From positions 481-64,480 of the IMG/VR virus record IMGVR_UViG_3300015375_000872: a stretch of DNA of 64,000 bases; one strand, 5' to 3'. This document shows, piece after piece, positions 2,741 to 15,071 of this stretch. Numbering within the stretch: the first letter of the stretch is position 1; every line of letters begins with the position of its first letter. The notes under the pieces are model-generated. The model did no database searches and was not told the DNA's origin. It saw nothing but the letters and a program-made list of their open reading frames with translations. Position numbers and translations under genes: made by a program. Origin of the DNA: a virus. Its lineage: Duplodnaviria; Caudoviricetes.

Positions 2741-3262
2741 ATGAAACTTTTAATTTTAGACCTTGACGGTACGGTTCGGATTAAGAAAGGTGGTGTGATT
2801 GGTGAATTTGAATCAGGGTTCATTGATTCACCTGAAGACCAGGAAATTATACCTGGTGCTATGTCGGCCATCAAAAAGTATCATTCAGAAGGGTGGATGA
2901 TTGTAGGTTGTAGTAATCAAGGGGGAGTTGCTGCGGGTCATAAAACTCTTGATTCATGTTTTGAAGAGCATAAGTATACAATCAAGTTAGTTCCAATGAT
3001 TGATAAGATTTACTTTTGTCCTGATTATGAAGGCAATAAATTAGGAGTTGTCAATCAAGTAAAACAGCGTATATACACCCCTAAAATTAACGAGGGTTCA
3101 TATCGTAAACCTAACCCTGGAATGATATGGTTTGCAATGGACTATTACTCGATTATACCGTCAATAAATGAAGTTTTAATGATTGGTGACAGAGACACTG
3201 ATGAGCAGTGTGCTATCGCTGCGGGTGTACCCTTTCAATGGGCTAAAGATTGGTGGTGTTAG
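2741..3262 (+). CDS. HAD-superfamily IIIA phosphatase (GmhB/HisB-like)
   Basis: DLDGT motif I, SNQGG, YFCP, RKPNPGM, MIGDRDTD. Confidence 0.85.
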   Translation: MKLLILDLDGTVRIKKGGVIGEFESGFIDSPEDQEIIPGAMSAIKKYHSEGWMIVGCSNQGGVAAGHKTLDSCFEEHKYTIKLVPMIDKIYFCPDYEGNKLGVVNQVKQRIYTPKINEGSYRKPNPGMIWFAMDYYSIIPSINEVLMIGDRDTDEQCAIAAGVPFQWAKDWWC

Positions 3263-5591: not shown

Positions 5592-5626
5592 AATAAAAAA
5601 CCCTCTGTTTCAGAGGGTTTTTTATT
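5592..5626. terminator. Bidirectional intrinsic terminator
   Basis: AATAAAAAACCCTCTG-ttt-CAGAGGGTTTTTTATT. Confidence 0.8.
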
Positions 5627-5715: not shown

Positions 5716-5922
5716 ATGGAGGCTATAGCAATGATACAGGCTTTACAGACCGAAACAACATATATTCACCCTAGAGATTTAATCAAGAGTAAGCTCTGGA
5801 CGTATGAAGAAGCTGCAACCGCTTTTAATGTTGAACTCTCAACTATATGGCGTTGGATGTCGGGAAGAGTGACACCCAGTAAGAAATATTTTAGACGTGC
5901 TATGGAATTAAAAATTTCATAA
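5716..5922 (+). CDS. Small Cro/XRE-type helix-turn-helix regulator
   Basis: TYEEAATAFNVELSTIWRWMSGRVTP. Confidence 0.75.
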   Translation: MEAIAMIQALQTETTYIHPRDLIKSKLWTYEEAATAFNVELSTIWRWMSGRVTPSKKYFRRAMELKIS

Positions 5923-5941
5923 AAATCAAATTAAATTTTTT

Positions 5942-5970
5942 AAACCCTCTATCTTAGAGGGTTTTTTATT
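5942..5970 (+). terminator. Intrinsic terminator
   Basis: AAACCCTCTA-tct-TAGAGGGTTT followed by a T-run. Confidence 0.75.
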
Positions 5971-6092
5971 GTCTAAAAGATGACTGCAAATGCAGTTAAA
6001 ATGCAGTTTTCAATACTATAAATAAAGCTTAAATTAAGAACAAGTTGAAAACAACTTAAGCACAAATTATTAATCGCTGGTAAAAAGATGAA

Positions 6093-6347
6093 ATGCAACA
6101 ATGTTTTGAAAACCACTCAGAGAGTTTTCAAATTCCTACAAAAAGAATGGCTGTTTATGAAAGATTTAATCTGTCAAGAAATGAAGGAAGGATACTCTGT
6201 GGTTTGCTTGGTTTCGGGACTACAACCCCTCTAACTCAACCACAAATTGAAAGTTTAAGCCGATTAACTAACCTTTACAGAAAATACCAAAGTAAAGGAA
6301 TAGGTTTAGGAACTTTCATCAAAAACTACACCAACAACAGCAATTAA
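6093..6347 (+). CDS. Hypothetical protein, possible HTH
   Basis: 84-aa ORF; YERFNLSRNEGRILCGLLG is helix-rich. Confidence 0.6.
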   Translation: MQQCFENHSESFQIPTKRMAVYERFNLSRNEGRILCGLLGFGTTTPLTQPQIESLSRLTNLYRKYQSKGIGLGTFIKNYTNNSN

Positions 6348-6361
6348 CAACGGTAAAAATC

Positions 6362-6601
6362 ATGAACAACAATTTTGATTCTAAACAAATTTCTGAACAG
6401 TTACGGTCAAAAGGATTTGATATCACTAAAGCCAATATTGATGATGCTCAAATGCTTCTAGTTCAGTTTGAATGTCCGACTGAAGCTGAAAACCCGATGA
6501 CCGTTGTACGTGCTGCTATCCTACGCAATCAGAATCCATCTTGGAGTGACGCTCAGGTAGTTGAGCGTGTTTTGACCTTACAGAACGAGATGAATCCTTG
6601 A
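6362..6601 (+). CDS. Hypothetical protein
   Basis: 79-aa ORF in operon. Confidence 0.65.
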   Translation: MNNNFDSKQISEQLRSKGFDITKANIDDAQMLLVQFECPTEAENPMTVVRAAILRNQNPSWSDAQVVERVLTLQNEMNP

Positions 6602-6630
6602 TGAACCCTTAGAACGGTCTAGCACCTACT

Positions 6631-6678
6631 GAGAGGCTTTACCGCTTCTCCCCCAAACCGTACCTCGACAACTGAATA
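6631..6678 (+). promoter_or_regulatory. Candidate boxB-boxA antitermination signal
   Basis: 7-bp hairpin GAGAGGC/GCTTCTC (6631-6650), then GTACCTCGACAACTGAATA (6660-6678), which resembles cyanobacterial rrn spacer boxA (GAACCTTGAAAACTG) as I recall it. Confidence 0.35.
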
Positions 6679-6750
6679 GCCTAGCCACAGACTCAAAATA
6701 AGAGGCGCACCTGTGGGAAGCAAAACAACCAATTATTAACAGGAATTCCA

Positions 6751-7155
6751 ATGATTATCGAACCTGAAGTTATCCCAGAAGGGAGGCGGGTTAAGTTGTT
6801 TAAGCTGGATGAGAAGAAGGCAACCTATACACCCGTTGGGGAACTCGCAAAACAGCTTAAACGTAAGCCGCAGACTCTAAGAGAATGGATTAAATTGTTG
6901 TTAATCCATTCTCCAGATATCTATCAGCATTATAAGCCTAAGAAAGCTTACAACCCCTACATAGTGGAATGGCTGACCAGAATCAATAACTATGATTTAT
7001 CCGAGCCGTCAAGCGCACCTAGACCGGAAATCATAGAGGAATATATCAGCTTAAACGCTCCGATTTTTACCTTTGAAAATTACCTACAGGAATTAACCAA
7101 TGAGTACCAGACAGAATCAAAAATCGACTCTGCAAAACTTGTCAAAGTCGCTTAA
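6751..7155 (+). CDS. HTH-containing DNA-binding protein
   Basis: TPVGELAKQLKRKPQTLREW. Confidence 0.65.
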   Translation: MIIEPEVIPEGRRVKLFKLDEKKATYTPVGELAKQLKRKPQTLREWIKLLLIHSPDIYQHYKPKKAYNPYIVEWLTRINNYDLSEPSSAPRPEIIEEYISLNAPIFTFENYLQELTNEYQTESKIDSAKLVKVA

Positions 7156-7855
7156 TGTTTCCGAGACTGAACTGATTATCGTTATTAAACAACTTGGTTT
7201 AAACCCGACTGAAATTGATGAAAGTTGGGAACCTGCTATCAAAGCTCATCTAAGCGGAACCAAGCCCCAAGCCCTAAAGGGAACACCCAAGGGGAATGAT
7301 GAACCGGAATCCTTCAGTATTAACGATTCCGATGATTTTATTGATTGGGAAGAAGTCGAGGGGGAACTGGGTGAGGGAGCGTTGGCACTGGTGAACGAAC
7401 TTGGTTTAAATCAAGATTGCATCACCCAAAGTGACTTGGCCGCCCTCCGAGAGTTGGCACTCAGTAACCCAGTTCACCAAAACCTCGCTGATCATATTGG
7501 GGCTGTGGGTTCAGTTCAAGAAGGGTTAACCAATGAACACATCCGAGTCCAGTTTGAAACAGGAACGGCTATTGGTGAAGCTGGCAACACCGCTTTAATA
7601 ATGGGAATGTTGCAATCACAACTCAATGGATTACAACAAGCTTACAGCCTACAAACTGCCATTAATTCGGACTTTCAAAAAATCCTTAATTCCCAGTTGG
7701 AACAATTAGGAAAACTTAACCAAGGCACACCCGATAAAACCGTTCAGGACTTGGGGAAGAAAGTAACACAATCCCAAAAAAACAGCCAACGGTCATCAAC
7801 AGTAAGAACTCAGAAAGTCGATGTGATGGCTATCAAGAAATCATTGCAGAAATAA
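7100..7855 (+). CDS. Hypothetical protein with N-terminal HTH-like segment and C-terminal coiled coil
   Basis: LQNLSKSLNVSETELIIVIKQLG; Q/L-rich heptads. Confidence 0.65.
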   Translation: MSTRQNQKSTLQNLSKSLNVSETELIIVIKQLGLNPTEIDESWEPAIKAHLSGTKPQALKGTPKGNDEPESFSINDSDDFIDWEEVEGELGEGALALVNELGLNQDCITQSDLAALRELALSNPVHQNLADHIGAVGSVQEGLTNEHIRVQFETGTAIGEAGNTALIMGMLQSQLNGLQQAYSLQTAINSDFQKILNSQLEQLGKLNQGTPDKTVQDLGKKVTQSQKNSQRSSTVRTQKVDVMAIKKSLQK

Positions 7856-7920
7856 AAGAGACGGTATCCCAAATTGAGAGCCGTCTCTCGACTTGCAAAA
7901 ATACATCTGAGAAATGCAAC

Positions 7921-8028
7921 ATGAGCAAGATTTTAACACGAATTAAGCGGTTAATTAAACACTTTGAAAGTATTGCACCTAATCAATACGATATTTACAG
8001 TATGGAGTGCCTGGGATTGTGTATTTAA
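7921..8028 (+). CDS. Possible 35-aa small protein (not in ORF track)
   Basis: My translation: MSKILTRIKRLIKHFESIAPNQYDIYSMECLGLCI*. It fills the gap before the next ATG at 8057. Confidence 0.3.
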   Translation: MSKILTRIKRLIKHFESIAPNQYDIYSMECLGLCI

Positions 8029-8056
8029 GGGGAGTTTAAACGGAAAACACCAAATC

Positions 8057-8461
8057 ATGAAATTAAATCTACCTCAAACCCTTAACGCAATTCTAACGGG
8101 TACTACCTTGGGTGCTATCGGTTCAGTGATGTTAAGTCTGACATTAGAACCGGAAATATCAGAGATGAGAATGGGTCAATATGGGGCGTTTATCGGGTTA
8201 ATAGCGAGTGCATCATCAGTGGCAATAGTTCAGGGTAGCAACGCTATTAATAATCGACAAAATGCCAATTTACACCCCAATAAACTGCCATCAGAAACCG
8301 ACTTTAACCCCATATTGGCTGATATCGTCAAAAAGTCGGCCGAAAACCATCTCAATGCCCTACAGCCAGGGAGTGATGAGTATTTTCAAGCCCTGGAATT
8401 GTACGGGAACCTACTTTCAGGGGAAAATAGCCCACCGCCCACCAATCTAAAAAAACAGTAA
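8057..8461 (+). CDS. Two-TM membrane protein (track start 7964 is TTG; ATG 8057 more likely)
   Basis: Hydrophobic glycine-rich helices AILTGTTLGAIGSVMLSL and YGAFIGLIASASSVAIV. Confidence 0.7.
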   Translation: MKLNLPQTLNAILTGTTLGAIGSVMLSLTLEPEISEMRMGQYGAFIGLIASASSVAIVQGSNAINNRQNANLHPNKLPSETDFNPILADIVKKSAENHLNALQPGSDEYFQALELYGNLLSGENSPPPTNLKKQ

Positions 8462-8493
8462 ACCTTACACCATATACAGAGAGGTAGTTACAG

Positions 8494-9318
8494 ATGATGG
8501 ATGCTTTGCAACCTGGTGACGACTCACCCGCCTTTAGTGGGAATCCAGACCCTACACAGAGGGAACCCAGAAAGCCTAATAAAACACAGAAACGGGTAGT
8601 TATTTTATTAATAACAATTGCAGTCTGTGGCTTCATTAGCTGGGTAGGTAATCAATCGGGGATAATTAAAAAATTTGCTCCTAATGTTCCTGTTGCTGAA
8701 TCCGTGAATAATACACAGCCAATGGCAGTAGAAGCGACTGGACAAAACCCAACTGAAACTAACAGTGATTCTGGAGAATTTCAACCCTCTCCTGATTTGG
8801 AAGTCCAACGTAATGAGCAACTAGAGAAGGCACTCAATGAGGTTGGATTTCAGATTAACAACCTCAGTGAAGCTGTTGCTGAGGATTTCCTTTTACAAGC
8901 CAGAACAGCTATTGCCAAAGAGCCAATTTCTATCGAGTTGTTTCTAGTCAAGAAGATTAACTATTTGGCCAATAAATTAGACAAGGCAACACTAGAAGGT
9001 GAATTCACGGGGAGTGCAAAAGAACGAGAGAAAGCAGCCAACTTACTGTTTGAGGTTTGGGGGAACCTCTTAGCTCTTAAAAAGCATTGGTCAACAACCG
9101 CAGGGAATCAGATTCAATTAAATTTTACCTCTGTTAATGTTTCGGTTTTAGCGAGTGACGTTCGACAATTTAGTGAAACAGCAATGACCTTGAGAGCGTT
9201 GACTTATGAACAACAAAAACGCACTGAGGCACTACAAAAACAACTTGAATTAGAAGCCAAAAAACAAGCTGAGTTAGAAGCTAAAAAGGAGGTGAAAAAA
9301 GATGGTAAAACCAAGTAG
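8494..9318 (+). CDS. Single-pass membrane protein with helical/coiled-coil C-terminal domain
   Basis: KRVVILLITIAVCGFISWVG TM segment; heptad C-terminus. Confidence 0.75.
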   Translation: MMDALQPGDDSPAFSGNPDPTQREPRKPNKTQKRVVILLITIAVCGFISWVGNQSGIIKKFAPNVPVAESVNNTQPMAVEATGQNPTETNSDSGEFQPSPDLEVQRNEQLEKALNEVGFQINNLSEAVAEDFLLQARTAIAKEPISIELFLVKKINYLANKLDKATLEGEFTGSAKEREKAANLLFEVWGNLLALKKHWSTTAGNQIQLNFTSVNVSVLASDVRQFSETAMTLRALTYEQQKRTEALQKQLELEAKKQAELEAKKEVKKDGKTK

Positions 9319-10729
9319 TTTCACAAAGGATAATTGGGGAGTTGCCATCGCTACAACATTAGGATTATCAGCTATTGGATTGTTTACCGCATCTTCAACC
9401 CAAGTGGAGGATATAAAAGGAATTTCACCTTATCAAAACCAAAAGGGTGAATGGGGTCATACATTAGTTATCGAACGTAAGCCTATGGAGAATTCCCCTT
9501 TATTGTTCCTCTTGGGTTTGGGATGTCTCGGAGGACTAGCAGGGACTCTTTTAGGGGATGATTCTATGGTCAAGATTGAATCCCTGCCAAACACAGTGCC
9601 GGACACAGTAAATAAAAGTCTGGCCTGGACAGTTTGGGGTATTGGTCAAGCTTTGGACAGCTTAGGAGAATGGGGCGAGAAGGGTTACTCTAAATCTTCT
9701 CAATTGGTTATTCGAGCTATCCCGCCGGAAATCAAAAGCAAATTTCAATCAATCAAGAATGACCATGCTTGGGTGTCAGATTTCCTTGCCTTACCTCACC
9801 AGAGAATCACAGGGGGGACTGGTTCAGGTAAATCAAAATTATTGGGCTTGGTCATCTCCCAGTGGCTCGAAAACAATCCCAATGGACAACTTTTTGTTGC
9901 AGACCCAAACTACGGAAAACCTGATGACGATGGCTATCTTAATGATTGGTTTGGGCTTGACTCGAAGTGGATTAAACAACCCGATGATGAAATTGATTGT
10001 TTGATTGATTATGTTCACGGTGAACTTGATAAACGGATTAAAACTTGTGTGGATGGGGTCAAGAATGGGGCTAAAAAGCTTTCTGACCTTCAAATTGACC
10101 TAACACCAATTTGCTTAATTTGTGAAGAGTTCGATTCGATTGTTGAACGTTACAAGAGCGACAAAACATCATCTCGCTTTGAAAAATTAATCGAAATCAT
10201 TAAGCAGGGAAGGGGTTACAAAATCAAACTAATCCCAGTTGGACAAAGTGCTTCAGTTGGCGAAGGTGGTTTTTCACTTGCAACCCTTGAGAATATCGCT
10301 CAATTAATCATCTGTTACCCATCTATTCCTGAAAGTCAATTAAGGTACTTAGGAGGTGCAAAAGATGAACTAATCGAAATAGTAGAACGGTTAATCAAAG
10401 AGGGTAAACGTCCTGCTATTTGTACAATCAAAGGTCAATCAAGAGTTGTTACAATTCCTGACCTATCAGGATTTAACGTCACTTTTACCAACAGTAACCC
10501 AGTTGACCCCGATGATATTTGGTGGCAGGAAATCAACACGGAAACCTTTAAATTATCTCTTGAACTCCGAGCCGTTAAATATTCTCAAGGATTGATTCAA
10601 TCACCACTTAAACAAATTTGTTCTGAGATTGGGATTGAGCCACGCTCAACAAATAAACGGTATACCCAATACCTTAAACCCGTGTGGGAATCTGCACTAT
10701 CTGAAGCCAAAACACTCGCTAAAAACTAG
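9302..10729 (+). CDS. Membrane-anchored FtsK/HerA-superfamily P-loop ATPase
   Basis: Two N-terminal TM segments, Walker A GGTGSGKS, LFVADP strand, Walker B ICEEFD, arginine-finger KQGRG, basic C-terminal helical tail. Confidence 0.8.
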   Translation: MVKPSSFTKDNWGVAIATTLGLSAIGLFTASSTQVEDIKGISPYQNQKGEWGHTLVIERKPMENSPLLFLLGLGCLGGLAGTLLGDDSMVKIESLPNTVPDTVNKSLAWTVWGIGQALDSLGEWGEKGYSKSSQLVIRAIPPEIKSKFQSIKNDHAWVSDFLALPHQRITGGTGSGKSKLLGLVISQWLENNPNGQLFVADPNYGKPDDDGYLNDWFGLDSKWIKQPDDEIDCLIDYVHGELDKRIKTCVDGVKNGAKKLSDLQIDLTPICLICEEFDSIVERYKSDKTSSRFEKLIEIIKQGRGYKIKLIPVGQSASVGEGGFSLATLENIAQLIICYPSIPESQLRYLGGAKDELIEIVERLIKEGKRPAICTIKGQSRVVTIPDLSGFNVTFTNSNPVDPDDIWWQEINTETFKLSLELRAVKYSQGLIQSPLKQICSEIGIEPRSTNKRYTQYLKPVWESALSEAKTLAKN

Positions 10730-10740
10730 GAGAATCTACC

Positions 10741-10977
10741 ATGAAAATCTTTAAATATACATTAATCACATTAGTCGCTTTAACTGTTTATTTTGGAGTT
10801 AAAGACCTAACTGTAGATGGTGTCTTAAAAGCTGGCGTTGAGAAAGGATGGGGTGTAGTTAATTTATTGTTCGGAGGCAACATTAACGCATCTAACAGCC
10901 GTCCGTTACCTCCCAATCAAGGTGATGATTCAGAGGCACAATTAACACCCATTGAAGAATTAAAGGATGTTGAATAA
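10741..10977 (+). CDS. Small membrane protein
   Basis: N-terminal TM YTLITLVALTVYFGV; AGGAG RBS. Confidence 0.7.
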   Translation: MKIFKYTLITLVALTVYFGVKDLTVDGVLKAGVEKGWGVVNLLFGGNINASNSRPLPPNQGDDSEAQLTPIEELKDVE

Positions 10978-11330
10978 TGCGATTCATCTACTATTCTGGC
11001 TCACTCCTTGGGTGGGCTTTTCTAATCTATTTTTGCTGGAATCAGTCTATCCCTTGGTGGTTTAAAAAGGGTGTATCCGAGTCGGTTAAAGCTGTTCCTG
11101 AAATTGCCAAAACAATTCCTAAAGATGATTGGGGGAAACCCAAGGAAGAACCTAAAAAAGATGGTGATAAACCATCGGAATCGGAATCAAAAACCGAACA
11201 ATCAGAACAGTCCAAAAAATTGTTTTCAGGTGAGATTCAAGTCGGAAAATTGCGTTCACGGTATAACCTTGATATCCCACAGGATAAGCAGTCAGAGTCA
11301 GTCGGTAAGCAAGATATGGGAGCTAAGTAG
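10977..11330 (+). CDS. Small membrane protein
   Basis: N-terminal TM SLLGWAFLIYFCW; TAATG coupling to the previous gene. Confidence 0.7.
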   Translation: MRFIYYSGSLLGWAFLIYFCWNQSIPWWFKKGVSESVKAVPEIAKTIPKDDWGKPKEEPKKDGDKPSESESKTEQSEQSKKLFSGEIQVGKLRSRYNLDIPQDKQSESVGKQDMGAK

Positions 11331-11332
11331 AT

Positions 11333-11914
11333 ATGAACAATAGGAAGATTGAGGAGAGGTTGAGCGAGTTAGAATCAAACCTTGATGATGTTTGGTTTTG
11401 GGTTTTTATTGTTGCAATTTTGTTAGGGTTCAGTGTTGTTAAATTCGGGTCAATCTCTCCTCAGACTTCCACACAACAAAACACCCAGTCCTCAACATTC
11501 CAACCATCAAAAGATGCTCCTAAATTTATTTATCCACTGCCATCGAAAGTAACAATTGGGTCGGGTTTTGGGATGCGTACACACCCAGTCACCGGGAAAC
11601 AACAAATGCACTCCGGTGTTGATATGGGAGCAGCAACGGGTACACCTATTTATGCTGTTGCTGATGGTCAAGTAGAGAGTGCTAGAGAGTTGGGTAACTG
11701 TGGTAACGGGGTTAGGATTAATCACAGTGGCGGTTATATGAGCGTTTACTGCCACGCTTCAAAATTGTTAGTAAAGGTTGGTCAATCGGTCAAGAGCGGC
11801 GACACTATCGCGCTAGTTGGTTCAACCGGAATGAGTACAGGCCCTCACTTGCATTTAGGGATGAAATTAAATGGCGAGTGGATTGACCCTAAAAAAGTTG
11901 TGCCTTTGGAGTAG
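11333..11914 (+). CDS. Membrane-anchored M23 metallo-endopeptidase
   Basis: HSGVD, YCH and HLH zinc motifs; TM VWFWVFIVAILLGFSVV. Confidence 0.92.
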   Translation: MNNRKIEERLSELESNLDDVWFWVFIVAILLGFSVVKFGSISPQTSTQQNTQSSTFQPSKDAPKFIYPLPSKVTIGSGFGMRTHPVTGKQQMHSGVDMGAATGTPIYAVADGQVESARELGNCGNGVRINHSGGYMSVYCHASKLLVKVGQSVKSGDTIALVGSTGMSTGPHLHLGMKLNGEWIDPKKVVPLE

Positions 11915-11920
11915 AAATCA

Positions 11921-12532
11921 ATGGAAATATTCAACAATTTAATGATGTGTGGAGTAGTCGGATTCACAGCTTTAAATCTTCTGCAATCTCCAGCAATTCA
12001 GCAAGTAGTTACTAATACAAATTCTGGAAATGTAGCCACTGCAAGCGCACCGGAAGACATCAAAAAAGCCGTTAGTGAAGCAGGGATAAATGATGAACAG
12101 TTCACATGGGCTATAGCTCATATTTTAAAAGTTGAAGGAGGTTGGTCTAACCATCCATCTGATAGAGGTGGAGCGACTAAGTATGGAATCATTGAATCAG
12201 TCGCAAAACGTCACGGTTTTAGCGTTTCATCTATCACTCTACCGCAAGCTATCAAGATTTATCATACTGATTATTGGATAGCTTCAGGAGCGAATAAAGC
12301 CCCTAACCCACTGAATTTAGCTATCATGAATTCATACGTCAATAGTGGTAAGAAGTGGTCAATTAGTGGTTCAAACCCACAAGAACAAGCGTTGAACTAT
12401 ATCAAGCAACAGGATGATTATTATATAAGGATTTATACTTCTAACCCATCACAAACAGTTTTTAAAAATGGGTGGCATCGTAGAACAAAATATATGGAGG
12501 ATGCGGTCAAGGGAGGTAATCCAAAATGGTAA
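11921..12532 (+). CDS. Glycoside hydrolase family 108 lysozyme with N-terminal hydrophobic anchor
   Basis: EGGWSNHPSDRGGATKYGI signature; C-terminal FKNGWHRR. Confidence 0.9.
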   Translation: MEIFNNLMMCGVVGFTALNLLQSPAIQQVVTNTNSGNVATASAPEDIKKAVSEAGINDEQFTWAIAHILKVEGGWSNHPSDRGGATKYGIIESVAKRHGFSVSSITLPQAIKIYHTDYWIASGANKAPNPLNLAIMNSYVNSGKKWSISGSNPQEQALNYIKQQDDYYIRIYTSNPSQTVFKNGWHRRTKYMEDAVKGGNPKW

Positions 12533-12537
12533 AAATA

Positions 12538-12568
12538 AAACCCTACTAAAAATCACATAGTAGGGTTT
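12538..12568 (+). terminator. Probable terminator closing the membrane operon
   Basis: AAACCCTACTA...TAGTAGGGTTT inverted repeat. Confidence 0.65.
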
Positions 12569-12696
12569 GTCTGGAGCAATTAAAAGGAGTTTTCTTAATA
12601 AAATTATATCACAATAAAATATTGATTATTAAAAAATATTGATTATTAAATAATAGATGTTATAATAATAATTATCAAAAGATTGGAGTTATTTTA

Positions 12697-13101
12697 ATGG
12701 CAATAAAAGGATTTTATGGTAGTTTCAGGAAAATATCAAAATCAGAGCTTGAGTCTAAAAAACAAATGTTTAACAAGGAATTTAAAAGGGTTCCAACCTG
12801 TGATGAAGCATTTGTTAATAATCAATATTGTGTAATGGTTTTTAATCGGTTTGTGGAGATGTTTGACTGGGGTGGTGAGATAAAACATCTTGTTATCAAA
12901 CCTGCTGATAATAAACCAATTAGAAACCATTGGAAGACTTTACAAGCAATCAAAAACGAGATATGTGGCACTGAACAGAATGCCATTGAAATATACCCCA
13001 AAGAGTCAACATTGATAGATGAAGCCAATGTTTACCACCTTTGGGTGTTCCCTGAAAGTTTCGAGTTGACTTTTGGAATACATTTACCAGGATGGTTCTA
13101 G
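12697..13101 (+). CDS. Conserved phage hypothetical protein
   Basis: W..LQ.IKNEI.G...A.EIYP....L.D.AN.YHLW pattern typical of a widespread phage family. Confidence 0.7.
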   Translation: MAIKGFYGSFRKISKSELESKKQMFNKEFKRVPTCDEAFVNNQYCVMVFNRFVEMFDWGGEIKHLVIKPADNKPIRNHWKTLQAIKNEICGTEQNAIEIYPKESTLIDEANVYHLWVFPESFELTFGIHLPGWF

Positions 13102-13616: not shown

Positions 13617-13821
13617 TGAAATAATGATATCTTTAAAAGAAATTGATAAAAAGATATCAGCTATTGAGAATTCACTGATATCTTGTATTATAAAATATGA
13701 CGTTGAACGAGTTAGCTTTATTGAGAATCAATTGCTGCTTGAAAACCTGAACGGTCAAAAAGCAGCATATATCGAATGTCTAAAACATATTAAAGAATTG
13801 AATCACTTACCGGATAAATAA
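13565..13821 (+). CDS. Hypothetical coiled-coil protein (track start 13489)
   Basis: ORF continues from the duplicated ATG; coordinates approximate at the 5' end. Confidence 0.55.
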
Positions 13822-14237
13822 ACATATTCAACTCTTTTTAAGACATCATCTAAAAATTCTTTGATATTATCTAAGTCTGAAACATTGATAATATCTGATG
13901 CTGAGAATTTTAACATCAAGTTATAATGGTCTGAATCACATCTCTGTCTGAAATCGGTTCTTAGTAACACTGTAGGGATATCTTTGGCAAAAGCATAACC
14001 TAACTCCCAAGCCGTACCATCGTCAGTTTGAGTGCCATCACATACAGCCAATACGATATCTGATTCATTGATTTTGTTGACTAATTCACTAAACAAAATA
14101 GCATCATCATCGGTATTTGAAGAGTTTTGTGGTAGGAAAACTTCATATCCCAACTCCTCAAGAATTGCTGAAATCTTTTCGTTATATTCACGTTCAGCAA
14201 CAGAGAATAAAGCACCCGCTAAATATATTTTTAACAT
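13803..14237 (-). CDS. Nucleoside 2-deoxyribosyltransferase-family protein (NDT/DNPH1-like)
   Basis: IYLAGALFS, YEVFLPQ, SDIVLAVCDG, DDGTAWELGYA. Confidence 0.85.
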   Translation of the reverse strand: MLKIYLAGALFSVAEREYNEKISAILEELGYEVFLPQNSSNTDDDAILFSELVNKINESDIVLAVCDGTQTDDGTAWELGYAFAKDIPTVLLRTDFRQRCDSDHYNLMLKFSASDIINVSDLDNIKEFLDDVLKRVEYVYLSGK

Positions 14238-14637: not shown

Positions 14638-14670
14638 GGCTCATAACCCGAAGGTCAGTGGTTCAAATCC
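14638..14670 (+). other. 33-bp fragment of initiator tRNA-Met (anticodon loop to T-loop); att-like core
   Basis: GGCTCATAACCCGAAGGTCAGTGGTTCAAATCC matches the bacterial tRNA-fMet sequence as I recall it; no D-arm or acceptor stem. Confidence 0.75.
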
Positions 14671-15071
14671 TTGTCCATTGGCATTAAATTAATAACCGAA
14701 ATTATACGGTTAAAATCGTTTTCGAGGTCAGTTTGGACATTTTTAAGGTTTTTGCCATTAAAAATAATCTCCAATAGCTCATCGGCGGTGATACCGGAAT
14801 ACTTAACCACAGCATAAAAGGTGTCTAAAGACGGTAATGCTTTAGCATTCTCATACGAGGCAATAGAAGTCTGTTTGATACTGTTTCCGGCGGGCGTGTA
14901 GTCGCTGAGGTTGTCTGCCAATTCTCGTTGCGTAAGATTTCCCCTTAAATTTTTTATCAGATTACCAAAGCGACCCTGACATTGCGCCAAGGTATCGGTT
15001 TTGGATTCAAAATCATCATTATTGATTTTAACAATTGATAATTTTCGTTTCATACAAACCCTTAAAAACAA
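14655..15071 (-). CDS. XRE-family HTH repressor
   Basis: FGNLIKNLRGNLTQRELAD...IKQTSIASYENAKALPSLD. Confidence 0.85.
   Translation of the reverse strand: MFLRVCMKRKLSIVKINNDDFESKTDTLAQCQGRFGNLIKNLRGNLTQRELADNLSDYTPAGNSIKQTSIASYENAKALPSLDTFYAVVKYSGITADELLEIIFNGKNLKNVQTDLENDFNRIISVINLMPMDKDLNH

Follow-up and report, generated by a model that had tools for sequence, protein, structure and literature searches.

A membrane-embedded module with an FtsK/HerA-type ATPase and wall hydrolases in phages, plasmids and integrated elements of filamentous cyanobacteria

Positions 5716-12568 of the window, a stretch of 64,000 nucleotides from virus record IMGVR_UViG_3300015375_000872, raise the question why a phage should carry a membrane-anchored motor ATPase together with small membrane proteins and two wall hydrolases in one run of genes. 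The initial annotation had described the region as a single same-strand, terminator-bounded block, less AT-rich than its flanks. The ORF check confirmed the coordinates of the genes, which lie densely packed on the plus strand. The windowed GC was also as described, with 0.38-0.42 over 6-12 kb versus 0.32-0.36 in the flanks, and the conserved part of the block had a GC of 0.42, higher than the phage background of about 0.34. The terminators were recovered in part. Upstream of the block lies a strong terminator-like hairpin on the plus strand, with a 16-bp stem and then a T run (5592-5626). Directly 3' of the last gene, past the stop at 12532, a plus-strand hairpin with a 9-bp stem (12540-12570) is a possible terminator, but its T tract is weak and the terminator scan did not call it. 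The description as a single unit had to be given up, as the block is interrupted by an internal hairpin (5942-5964) and, immediately 5' of 8057, by a gap of 200 nt that holds another hairpin, and the genes at 6093-7855 are without counterpart in relatives. The conserved unit comprises the seven genes at 8057-12532, and the block as a whole is composite. This module lies in the early/replication arm, on the strand shared with DnaB, PolB and DnaN and distant from the virion genes.

Orthologues of the seven genes were present in the Planktothrix phage PaV-LD (NC_016564) as ORF129L to ORF122L, in the same order except for ORF126L. The nucleotide identity was about 70% across 8.1-12.5 kb, and the proteins were identical to 82% (ATPase), 69% (8494 product), 69% (holin-like 10977 product), 59% (M23) and 75% (GH108). 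The window lacks ORF126L, and it also lacks the perfect tandem repeat of 23 bp that PaV-LD has at the 3' end of its ATPase gene. The genes upstream of the module in PaV-LD are unlike those of the window. Only the 68-aa product of 5716-5922 (plus strand), outside the conserved module, showed about 29% identity at the ORF131L position, and the terminator-like plus-strand hairpin at 5942-5964, 3' of this gene, belongs to it. The following plus-strand genes (6093-6347, 6362-6601, 6751-7155 and 7100-7855) could not be assigned to a family, and neither PaV-LD nor any of 15 related viral contigs has homologues of them. Contigs from two studies part from the window sequence at 6571. Four of the upstream genes had been regarded as HTH regulators, which was not borne out by the domain profiles: the signal of the 5716 product was weak and below threshold (HTH_31, E 2.5e-4), that of the 6751 product was marginal (E 0.03-0.07), and the 6093 and 7100 products gave no HTH match. 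The stretch 5716-7855 holds early genes that are variable and unrelated to the conserved module, and the upstream 'regulators' were rejected as part of it.

Four small or single-pass membrane proteins had been counted in the block. Hydropathy analysis found one TM segment each in the 8057, 8494 and 10741 products, while the 10977 product stayed under the threshold, although it is 69% identical to the membrane-localised ORF124 of PaV-LD. The first gene (8057-8461, plus strand) encodes a 134-aa membrane protein with a TM segment at residues 12-30, equivalent to ORF129L. Its direct match to L018_8934, a protein that itself matches the plasmid and Kastovskya copies of the module, was marginal (E 0.01), so by sequence it may be the counterpart of the membrane protein of about 100 aa found upstream in distant modules. 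The second (8494-9318, plus strand), equivalent to ORF128L, overlaps the start of the ATPase gene by 17 nt and encodes a 274-aa protein with a short cytoplasmic N-terminus, a TM segment at 35-53, a disordered linker and a predicted four-helix bundle at 100-271. The search with its predicted structure returned no informative fold match. This family was present in eight distant modules, in five of the eight by direct BLAST or through one intermediate. The two small genes 3' of the ATPase gene, both on the plus strand, encode a 78-aa single-pass membrane protein (10741-10977; equivalent to ORF125L, 41-51% identity) and the 117-aa equivalent of the ORF124 membrane 'holin' (10977-11330), the start of which shares 1 nt with the stop of 10741.

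The 475-aa ATPase (9302-10729, plus strand; equivalent to ORF127L) was assigned to the FtsK/HerA superfamily by motifs, profile search and predicted structure, as the initial annotation had proposed. It has a Walker A motif GGTGSGKS, a Walker B motif ICLICEEFD and two N-terminal hydrophobic TM helices (9-31 and 65-83). These are separated by a beta-hairpin at 34-61, presumably periplasmic, and are followed by a RecA-like motor at 142-384 and a conserved helical C-terminal domain at 403-474. Type IV coupling proteins have this layout, with two N-terminal TM helices and a short loop before the motor. Both Walker motifs were kept in all of 47 sequences, among which G176, K177 and E276 were invariant, and among phages the ATPase was the best-conserved protein of the module, with 79-93% identity. 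The scores with FtsK_SpoIIIE (PF01580, 14.0 bits) and DUF87/HerA (PF01935, 16.9 bits) were below the gathering cut-offs of 24 and 23.2, respectively, and no NCBIfam matched; the protein is a divergent lineage of its own within the superfamily. Comparison of its C-terminal domain with FtsK-gamma, TraB and the HTH families revealed no similarity. One partial homologue carries the NCBI name 'type IV secretory system conjugative DNA transfer family protein'.

The family profile matched EccC best among solved structures (6e-12), followed by FtsK (1e-8), HerA and TcpA. On these profiles the motor is no farther from the protein-secreting EccC/EssC than from FtsK. The predicted model (pLDDT 86.6) had TcpA of the Clostridium perfringens plasmid pCW3 as its best fold match (PDB 6o1w; E 1.3e-6, rmsd 4.6 Å over 252 columns), followed by the FtsK motor and EccC; Foldseek gave TcpA, FtsK, EccC and HerA, all with a probability of 1.00, and also EssC. 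TcpA is 17% identical to the window ATPase, and both have two N-terminal TM helices. TcpA is an FtsK-like type IV coupling protein partnered with the hydrolases TcpG and TcpI, and the Tcp system requires TcpF, a VirB4, TcpH, a VirB6, and the relaxase TcpM. No counterpart of these three was found here. Taken together, profiles and model identify the ATPase as a true FtsK/HerA-superfamily motor, apparently of the hexamer type and FtsK/TcpA-like.

The matches to EccC and EssC raise the possibility that the substrate or target of the motor is a protein and not DNA. Acting like EssC/EccC or, by analogy only, like FtsEX-EnvC, the motor would serve to export or to activate a protein, be it the wall hydrolases or some other. 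The top profile match and the presence of EccC and EssC among the fold matches are consistent with this. EccC and EssC are likewise anchored in the membrane by two helices. Coiled-coil adaptors couple membrane ATPases to hydrolases, and the periplasmic helical bundle of the 8494 product has a similar outline. However, EccC and EssC, which export proteins in type VII secretion, have three tandem ATPase domains and extra N-terminal domains, whereas the model of the window ATPase has a single motor domain (142-384) with a 70-aa helical tail, and an FHA domain is lacking. The top fold match is a DNA coupling protein. Both hydrolases bear an N-terminal membrane segment of their own, so that a dedicated exporter would be unneeded, and the module is carried by replicons and not by chromosomal housekeeping loci. 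Protein export or hydrolase control is thus an improbable function of the module.

The two wall hydrolases are encoded at the 3' end of the module on the plus strand. The 193-aa product of 11333-11914 is 59% identical to ORF123 and is an M23 metallopeptidase anchored in the membrane, in which the HxxxD and HxH motifs are present; the M23 domain (E 1.9e-33) behind a strong N-terminal TM helix agrees with the initial annotation. The 203-aa product of 11921-12532 is 75% identical to ORF122L and has a GH108 muramidase domain (E 3.7e-19) with the motif EGG...D.GG.T..GI. Here the assignment as a muramidase was upheld, while the N-terminal segment proposed as its anchor is weakly hydrophobic and resembles a signal-anchor-release (SAR) segment. 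In PaV-LD, the ORF124 'holin' and the ORF123 endopeptidase damage membranes and act synergistically in lysing E. coli and Synechocystis, and the lysis literature on this phage covers these two proteins alone (PMC9096620). ORF122 is annotated as an endolysin by RefSeq and ORF127 as 'FtsK/SpoIIIE protein'. By homology to ORF124, ORF123 and ORF122, the genes at 10977, 11333 and 11921 can be taken as a holin-endolysin cassette. The complete PaV-LD genome contained no match to Amidase_2, Amidase_3 or Phage_lysozyme, no second M23 and no further annotated endolysin. As PaV-LD is without another hydrolase of these four families, the phage very probably needs the enzymes of this cassette for lysis.

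The survey of gene neighbourhoods proposed in the initial annotation placed the module on true plasmids as well as on phages. In 14 out of 14 distinct contexts examined the order was the same, with a small TM protein, the TM helical protein, the ATPase, small TM proteins, the M23 peptidase and, where there is one, a glycosidase, and the M23 gene always lay 1-6 genes 3' of the ATPase gene. The number of small TM proteins varied from one to three per copy. The glycosidase slot after M23 was filled in most copies, by either GH108 or SLT, and in some copies M23 and glycosidase were fused into one protein of 363-385 aa. This exchange of GH108 for SLT, or fusion of the glycosidase to M23, argues that the wall enzymes act jointly with the motor. 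Two of these contexts are the Oscillatoria acuminata plasmids pOSCIL6304.01 (NC_019700, of which part was read) and pOSCIL6304.02 (NC_019694, read at full length), on which the module lies 3' of ParM. Both have the order of the window, with TM proteins of about 90 and about 360 aa, an ATPase of about 480 aa that is 26-28% identical to that of the window, two small TM proteins, and M23 and GH108, here fused (375-379 aa). All of these proteins are membrane-anchored, and their genes are annotated as hypothetical except for the GH108 protein. Over its whole length pOSCIL6304.02 has no annotated phage structural gene; it encodes a primase-type replicase, ParA and ParM. Further copies of the module adjoin primase-type replicases of the DUF3854/DUF5906 kind. 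The genes at 8057-12532 are a membrane-embedded module common to phages, plasmids and integrated elements of filamentous cyanobacteria.

One explanation of its function would be an ordinary lysis cassette, in which 10741-12532 encode a holin or pinholin and two signal-anchored endolysins. The ATPase and the TM proteins would be accessory and would time or regulate lysis, or have an unrelated role in the phage, and the plasmid copies would be prophage remnants. The lytic activity of ORF124 and ORF123, the RefSeq annotation of ORF122, the lack of another hydrolase of the searched families in PaV-LD and the SAR-like N-terminus of the GH108 protein all fit this explanation. On the other hand, the entire module including the ATPase occurs on plasmids, where it is not obvious what a lysis cassette would be used for, one of them is without an annotated virion gene, and module copies adjoin plasmid-type replicases. 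The linkage of ATPase and M23 is complete, the ATPase is the best-conserved gene, and we know of no lysis system with an FtsK-type motor. We consider it unlikely that the module is a lysis cassette only.

The explanation that we favour, tentatively and short of calling it probable, is a plasmid-type module for DNA translocation through the envelope that was captured by phages, with the hydrolases doubling as lysis enzymes. The M23 peptidase and the glycosidase would cut the peptidoglycan locally, and the ATPase would pump the DNA of the element through the cytoplasmic membrane and the wall into the adjoining cell, in a transfer akin to that by the VirB4-free TraB/Spd of Streptomyces or by coupling proteins of the TcpA type. 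In the phage, the holin-like 10977, the M23 11333 and the GH108 11921 products would also work as a lysis cassette. That DNA is the substrate of the ATPase, that it moves from cell to cell and that the module has a role in the phage beyond lysis, we infer. The published 'lysis system' of PaV-LD would then be reread, with holin and endopeptidase as the distal part of a larger machine that stems from plasmids.

A membrane-anchored motor of the DNA type in the early/replication arm, off the virion genes and on the strand of the replication genes, could also act as a gatekeeper that aids entry of the genome, or expels or excludes incoming DNA (superinfection exclusion). This would leave unexplained the obligatory M23 and glycosidase partners, the plasmid copies beside partition genes and the restriction to filamentous hosts, and we regard it as very unlikely.

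VirB4-family ATPases are the one ubiquitous protein of type IV secretion systems (PMC4027160). The initial annotation had stated that the region lacks a relaxase and VirB4, and indeed neither PF12846 (AAA_10/VirB4-type) nor the relaxase profile PF03432 matched in the 64.5-kb record of the window. An obligate co-occurrence of the module with relaxase and VirB4 was also looked for in five carriers, of which three are genomes and two are complete plasmids. VirB4 (PF12846, PF03135) gave no match in any of the five, and the only match to PF03432 was a MOBP relaxase on pOSCIL6304.02; there was none on pOSCIL6304.01 or on the module contigs of the carrier genomes G001, G084 and G211. No relaxase is annotated in PaV-LD. 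A fragment of a classical conjugation system that kept the coupling protein and a VirB1-like hydrolase would account for TcpA as the top fold match, for the NCBI name of the partial homologue and for the MOBP relaxase. Because VirB4 was found in no searched carrier and the relaxase was inconsistent among them, this origin was rejected; it is extremely improbable also in view of the conserved gene order of a self-contained unit.

The TraB/Spd system of Streptomyces transfers dsDNA and supports intramycelial spreading, as for pSVH1 (PMC4447253). The module resembles it in having a single FtsK-like membrane motor with small membrane and wall-interacting proteins, in multicellular filamentous hosts, and in the lack of VirB4 and of a requirement for a relaxase. 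The C-terminal winged-helix domain of Streptomyces TraB recognises clt, a series of 8-bp repeats carried by the element. No clt-like array of short repeats was found within or next to the module of the window, the conserved helical C-terminal domain of the window ATPase is not recognisably a winged helix, and beyond the FtsK superfamily no sequence relationship to TraB was detectable. The host of the window phage is diderm, and M23 and muramidase take the place of the peptidoglycan-binding Spd proteins. Should the module indeed move DNA, no FtsK-driven transfer system independent of VirB4 would have been known before it outside Actinomycetes and Firmicutes. It would then also account for the movement of plasmids, and perhaps of phage genomes, through filaments, including those of bloom-forming Planktothrix.

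In such filaments, septal peptidoglycan and two cytoplasmic membranes are all that lies between neighbouring cells, which share the outer membrane. A more specific version of the favoured translocation module is a trans-septal conduit, in which M23 and GH108 would bore through the septal wall, and the motor would send the phage genome or plasmid to the next cell, so that a phage of the PaV-LD type could spread along a filament without virions. We consider this speculative and improbable; if true, it would be a DNA-transfer route new for cyanobacteria and, for phages, a way of spreading described nowhere. The bias towards filamentous hosts was checked with HetR, used purely as a proxy marker for filamentous growth, in counts uncorrected for phylogeny or genome size. 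The named hosts (Planktothrix, Oscillatoria, Kastovskya and Elainellaceae) are all filamentous. Within one cyanobacterial order, HetR was present in 16 of 17 carrier genomes versus 227 of 401 overall, an enrichment with a hypergeometric p of 7e-4. In a phylum-wide sample all four carriers had HetR (4/4), versus 101/401 overall.

The 64,480-base viral contig, of which the window covers 64,000 bases, has an estimated completeness of 68%. The window is related to the Planktothrix phage PaV-LD, and positions 8120-12530 aligned with PaV-LD ORF129L to ORF122L at about 70% nucleotide identity. Genes for DnaB, a family-B polymerase and the DnaN clamp are on the plus strand in the first 30 kb, and the terminase and virion genes are on the minus strand past 30 kb, which places the block in the early/replication arm and away from the morphogenesis arm, as the initial annotation had it. 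Windowed GC was 0.38-0.42 over 6-12 kb versus 0.32-0.36 around it, so that the block is indeed less AT-rich than its flanks. The seven genes from 8057 to 12532, referred to here as the module, are real and closely spaced open reading frames; 8494 overlaps the start of the ATPase gene (9302-10729) by 17 nt, 10741 and the holin-like 10977 overlap by 1 nt, and the genes after these are 2-11 nt apart. Hydropathy analysis placed N-terminal transmembrane (TM) segments in the products of 8057, 8494, 10741, 11333 and 11921, and two in the ATPase. The M23 domain (11333; E 1.9e-33) and the GH108 domain (11921; E 3.7e-19) were unambiguous, with the catalytic motifs in place.

While these open reading frames, TM segments, hydrolases and base composition were confirmed, the regulators of the initial annotation and its description of 5716-12568 as a single terminator-bounded unit were not. 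HTH regulators had been assigned at 5716, 6093, 6751 and 7100. The HTH signal was below threshold in 5716 and marginal in 6751, and 6093 and 7100 had no HTH match in Pfam, PHROGs or NCBIfam. Terminator-like hairpins were present at 5592-5626 and, inside the proposed unit, at 5942-5964. A further hairpin lies in the 200-nt gap directly 5' of 8057. On comparison with PaV-LD, 15 related viral contigs and distant modules, a counterpart existed for every gene from 8057 to 12532, and none was found in any of these for genes 6093-7855. Contigs from two independent studies, a freshwater metatranscriptome and a wastewater library, ceased to match the window at exactly 6571. This agrees with a mosaic boundary, and 6571 is likely a breakpoint among related phages at which the GC-richer stretch begins. 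The contigs of the freshwater metatranscriptome overlapped the module and its neighbours alike; being assembled contigs only, they are silent on timing or level. One contig in one run joined 6571 to 12799, but with just 30 letters on one side this junction is too weak to establish a cassette deletion. The possibility that the 7100 protein is related, as an IF2_N type, to a gene 5' of a different module was also considered and rejected on a BLAST E value of 12.

Pfam gave only matches below threshold for the ATPase (DUF87, 16.9 bits; FtsK_SpoIIIE, 14 bits). An exhaustive profile search of its family returned 315 cluster representatives at E <= 1e-3, of which 88 reached E <= 1e-10, and most of the 150 matches listed were 440-500 aa long. 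The GK of Walker A, D201 and the Walker B residue E276 were invariant across 47 aligned relatives. Compared with solved structures, the family profile matched EccC (6e-12), FtsK (1e-8), HerA and TcpA. The AlphaFold model (pLDDT 86.6) consisted of TM1, a beta-hairpin, TM2, a long helix, a RecA-like motor and a C-terminal four-helix domain; as the predicted hairpin sits between both TM helices, it is probably periplasmic. In the Foldseek ranking TcpA, the coupling protein of pCW3, came out on top (E 1.3e-6), followed by the FtsK motor on DNA, EccC and HerA, and together with the profile matches this upheld the initial assignment to the FtsK/HerA type. The C-terminal domain is conserved (WW...SPLK...RY..F/YLKP.WE) and had no sequence match in Pfam or the PDB, so that a role as DNA reader is a guess. 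A packaging ATPase of tailless phages, of the PRD1 P9 type, was dropped, since the phage encodes a large terminase subunit and plasmids carry the motor too; the portal and tape-measure genes of PaV-LD contradict it as well. The 8494 protein was modelled as a helical bundle (pLDDT 66.6), for which there was no PDB fold match at E <= 0.001 and no usable match in the protein atlas. Complex prediction with ATPase residues 1-130 and the 8494 protein gave a score of 0.01, which is no argument either way on binding.

Distant family members (21-34% identity) were read in 13 further distinct contexts: the metagenomic contigs L017, L021, L034, L035, L038, L039 and L040 and one JGI contig, an Elainellaceae MAG (L018), Kastovskya adunca (L019, genome G084), genome G211 (L037), and the Oscillatoria acuminata PCC 6304 plasmids L024 and L025. 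The order was the same in all 13: a TM protein of about 100 aa, a TM protein of 220-390 aa that is a homologue of 8494 or equivalent to it in position, the ATPase, at least one small TM protein, and an M23 peptidase. The glycan-cutting partner varied. The PaV-LD clade has GH108 as a gene of its own; in L024, L025, L040 and the JGI contig, GH108 and M23 form one fused protein; L017, L019 and L037 have SLT instead; in the remaining contexts the partner was absent or unrecognised. That a hydrolase is fused or non-orthologously swapped while the frame around it stays fixed marks the set as a functional unit and not as a chance neighbourhood.

The fully read plasmid pOSCIL6304.02 has ParA and ParM alongside a primase-type replicase (DUF5906), as well as recombinases and a MOBP relaxase; virion genes are not annotated anywhere on it. 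The part of pOSCIL6304.01 that was read has a similar backbone. Further module copies adjoin DUF3854 replicase-type genes. A Mu-like element borders the Kastovskya copy, which lies to the left of that element's repressor/transposase end. Directly upstream of the module, L018 (7208-8520), L024 (8921-10146) and L025 (8940-10165) each have an actin-like partition gene, ParM/StbA, followed by a small gene. Baseplate and tail-fibre genes accompany ParM and the module in L018, which is therefore probably a phage-plasmid. The module was not always accompanied by a relaxase and VirB4: no relaxase was found on pOSCIL6304.01, neither of the VirB4-type families PF12846 and PF03135 was matched in three carrier genomes or on either plasmid, and the window's own record likewise had no PF12846 match, which agrees with the initial annotation. 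In a complete cyanobacterial chromosome (L051, genome G557; 5,597,100-5,600,650) the first four module genes of the Oscillatoria plasmids were present at 92-96% protein identity, with no M23-GH108 gene after them; this looks like an integrated, truncated plasmid copy.

The genes are in GenBank, and three are already public as a lysis system, ORF122 by annotation. PaV-LD ORF124 was characterised as a membrane-localised holin with one TMD and ORF123 as a TMD-bearing M23 endopeptidase; each damaged E. coli and Synechocystis, the combination was synergistic, and the TMDs were needed (PMC9096620). The products of 10977 and 11333 are 69% and 59% identical to ORF124 and ORF123, respectively, and that of 11921 is 75% identical to ORF122, an annotated endolysin. 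The phage very probably lyses its host with the module enzymes. That they serve lysis and nothing more would account for these assays and for the finding that PaV-LD has no Amidase_2, Amidase_3, Phage_lysozyme, second M23 or other annotated endolysin. It is nevertheless unlikely, as it leaves unexplained why an FtsK-type motor is the best-conserved module gene (79-93% among phages) and why the whole set is found beside partition genes on plasmids. Protein export by an EccC-like motor, which the sequence profile keeps alive, is less probable still, given that the ATPase has a single ATPase domain and that the hydrolases bring their own membrane segments.

We tentatively prefer a plasmid-type envelope DNA-translocation module, perhaps captured by phages of filamentous cyanobacteria, whose wall-cutting end doubles as a lysis cassette, because this fits most of the facts. 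Such a module may be likened to Streptomyces TraB/Spd or to a TcpA system without VirB4. The trans-septal spread system of the initial annotation was thereby supported in part: translocation is kept as the tentatively preferred reading, alongside the lysis role, and it is improbable that, going further, phage genomes pass from cell to cell through septa in the absence of virions. The FtsK-like gene of PaV-LD, ORF127, is annotated as 'FtsK/SpoIIIE protein', and no discussion of this ATPase or of FtsK-type transfer in cyanobacteria was found in the literature. If the proposed function holds, the module would be a new variant of FtsK-driven DNA transfer.

HetR is a marker of filamentous cyanobacteria. 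In a sample of 401 genomes across the phylum, 4 carried the ATPase, all with HetR (101 of 401 overall). Among 401 genomes sampled from the order containing Kastovskya there were 17 carriers, 12 of them at E < 1e-90; HetR was present in 16 of the 17 versus 227 of 401 overall, and the sole negative carrier was a very fragmented assembly. The hypergeometric p value for this enrichment, which ignores phylogeny, was 7e-4; leaving out the seed genome raised it to 1e-3. The named hosts are filamentous without exception, so among the genomes searched the module was not equally common in unicellular hosts. In Anabaena-type filaments the outer membrane and periplasm are continuous between neighbouring cells. 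Crossing from cell to cell would then involve only a cytoplasmic membrane, the septal peptidoglycan and a second cytoplasmic membrane, and the module would need no outer-membrane components, which would give a mechanistic reason for the host range.

Among clt/KOPS-like words, 7-9-mers were neither over-represented nor clustered anywhere in the window, and no repeat array lies beside the module. A perfect 17-bp tandem repeat, AAAATATTGATTATTAA, is present in two copies at 12616-12649, just 3' of the module in a promoter-like region, with an inverted copy 170 nt further on (12810-12829) inside a DUF7694 gene. In one run, a related contig had one copy less. The repeats may form a set of operators for the gene that follows (12697). 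In PaV-LD a perfect 23-bp tandem repeat (2.5 copies) spans the 3' end of the FtsK-like gene (PaV-LD 86960-87016; 8284-8340 in its locus L001) and is followed by an extra gene, ORF126L. Its position recalls Streptomyces clt at the end of traB, but the window has neither repeat nor extra gene.

The early arm encodes, at its left end, a 549-aa protein (660-2309; phrog_24053, function unknown) with a C-terminal VWA_2 domain. Both here (2741-3262) and in the unrelated contig L038 (14297-14806), a gene for a PNK3P/HAD-type polynucleotide phosphatase is located within a few kb of the module, which may be coincidence. On the minus strand, 13803-14237 encodes a nucleoside 2-deoxyribosyltransferase-like protein (E 4e-22; weak TIR_2 match) adjoining an XRE repressor (14655-15071); it could serve nucleotide salvage or defence/counter-defence.
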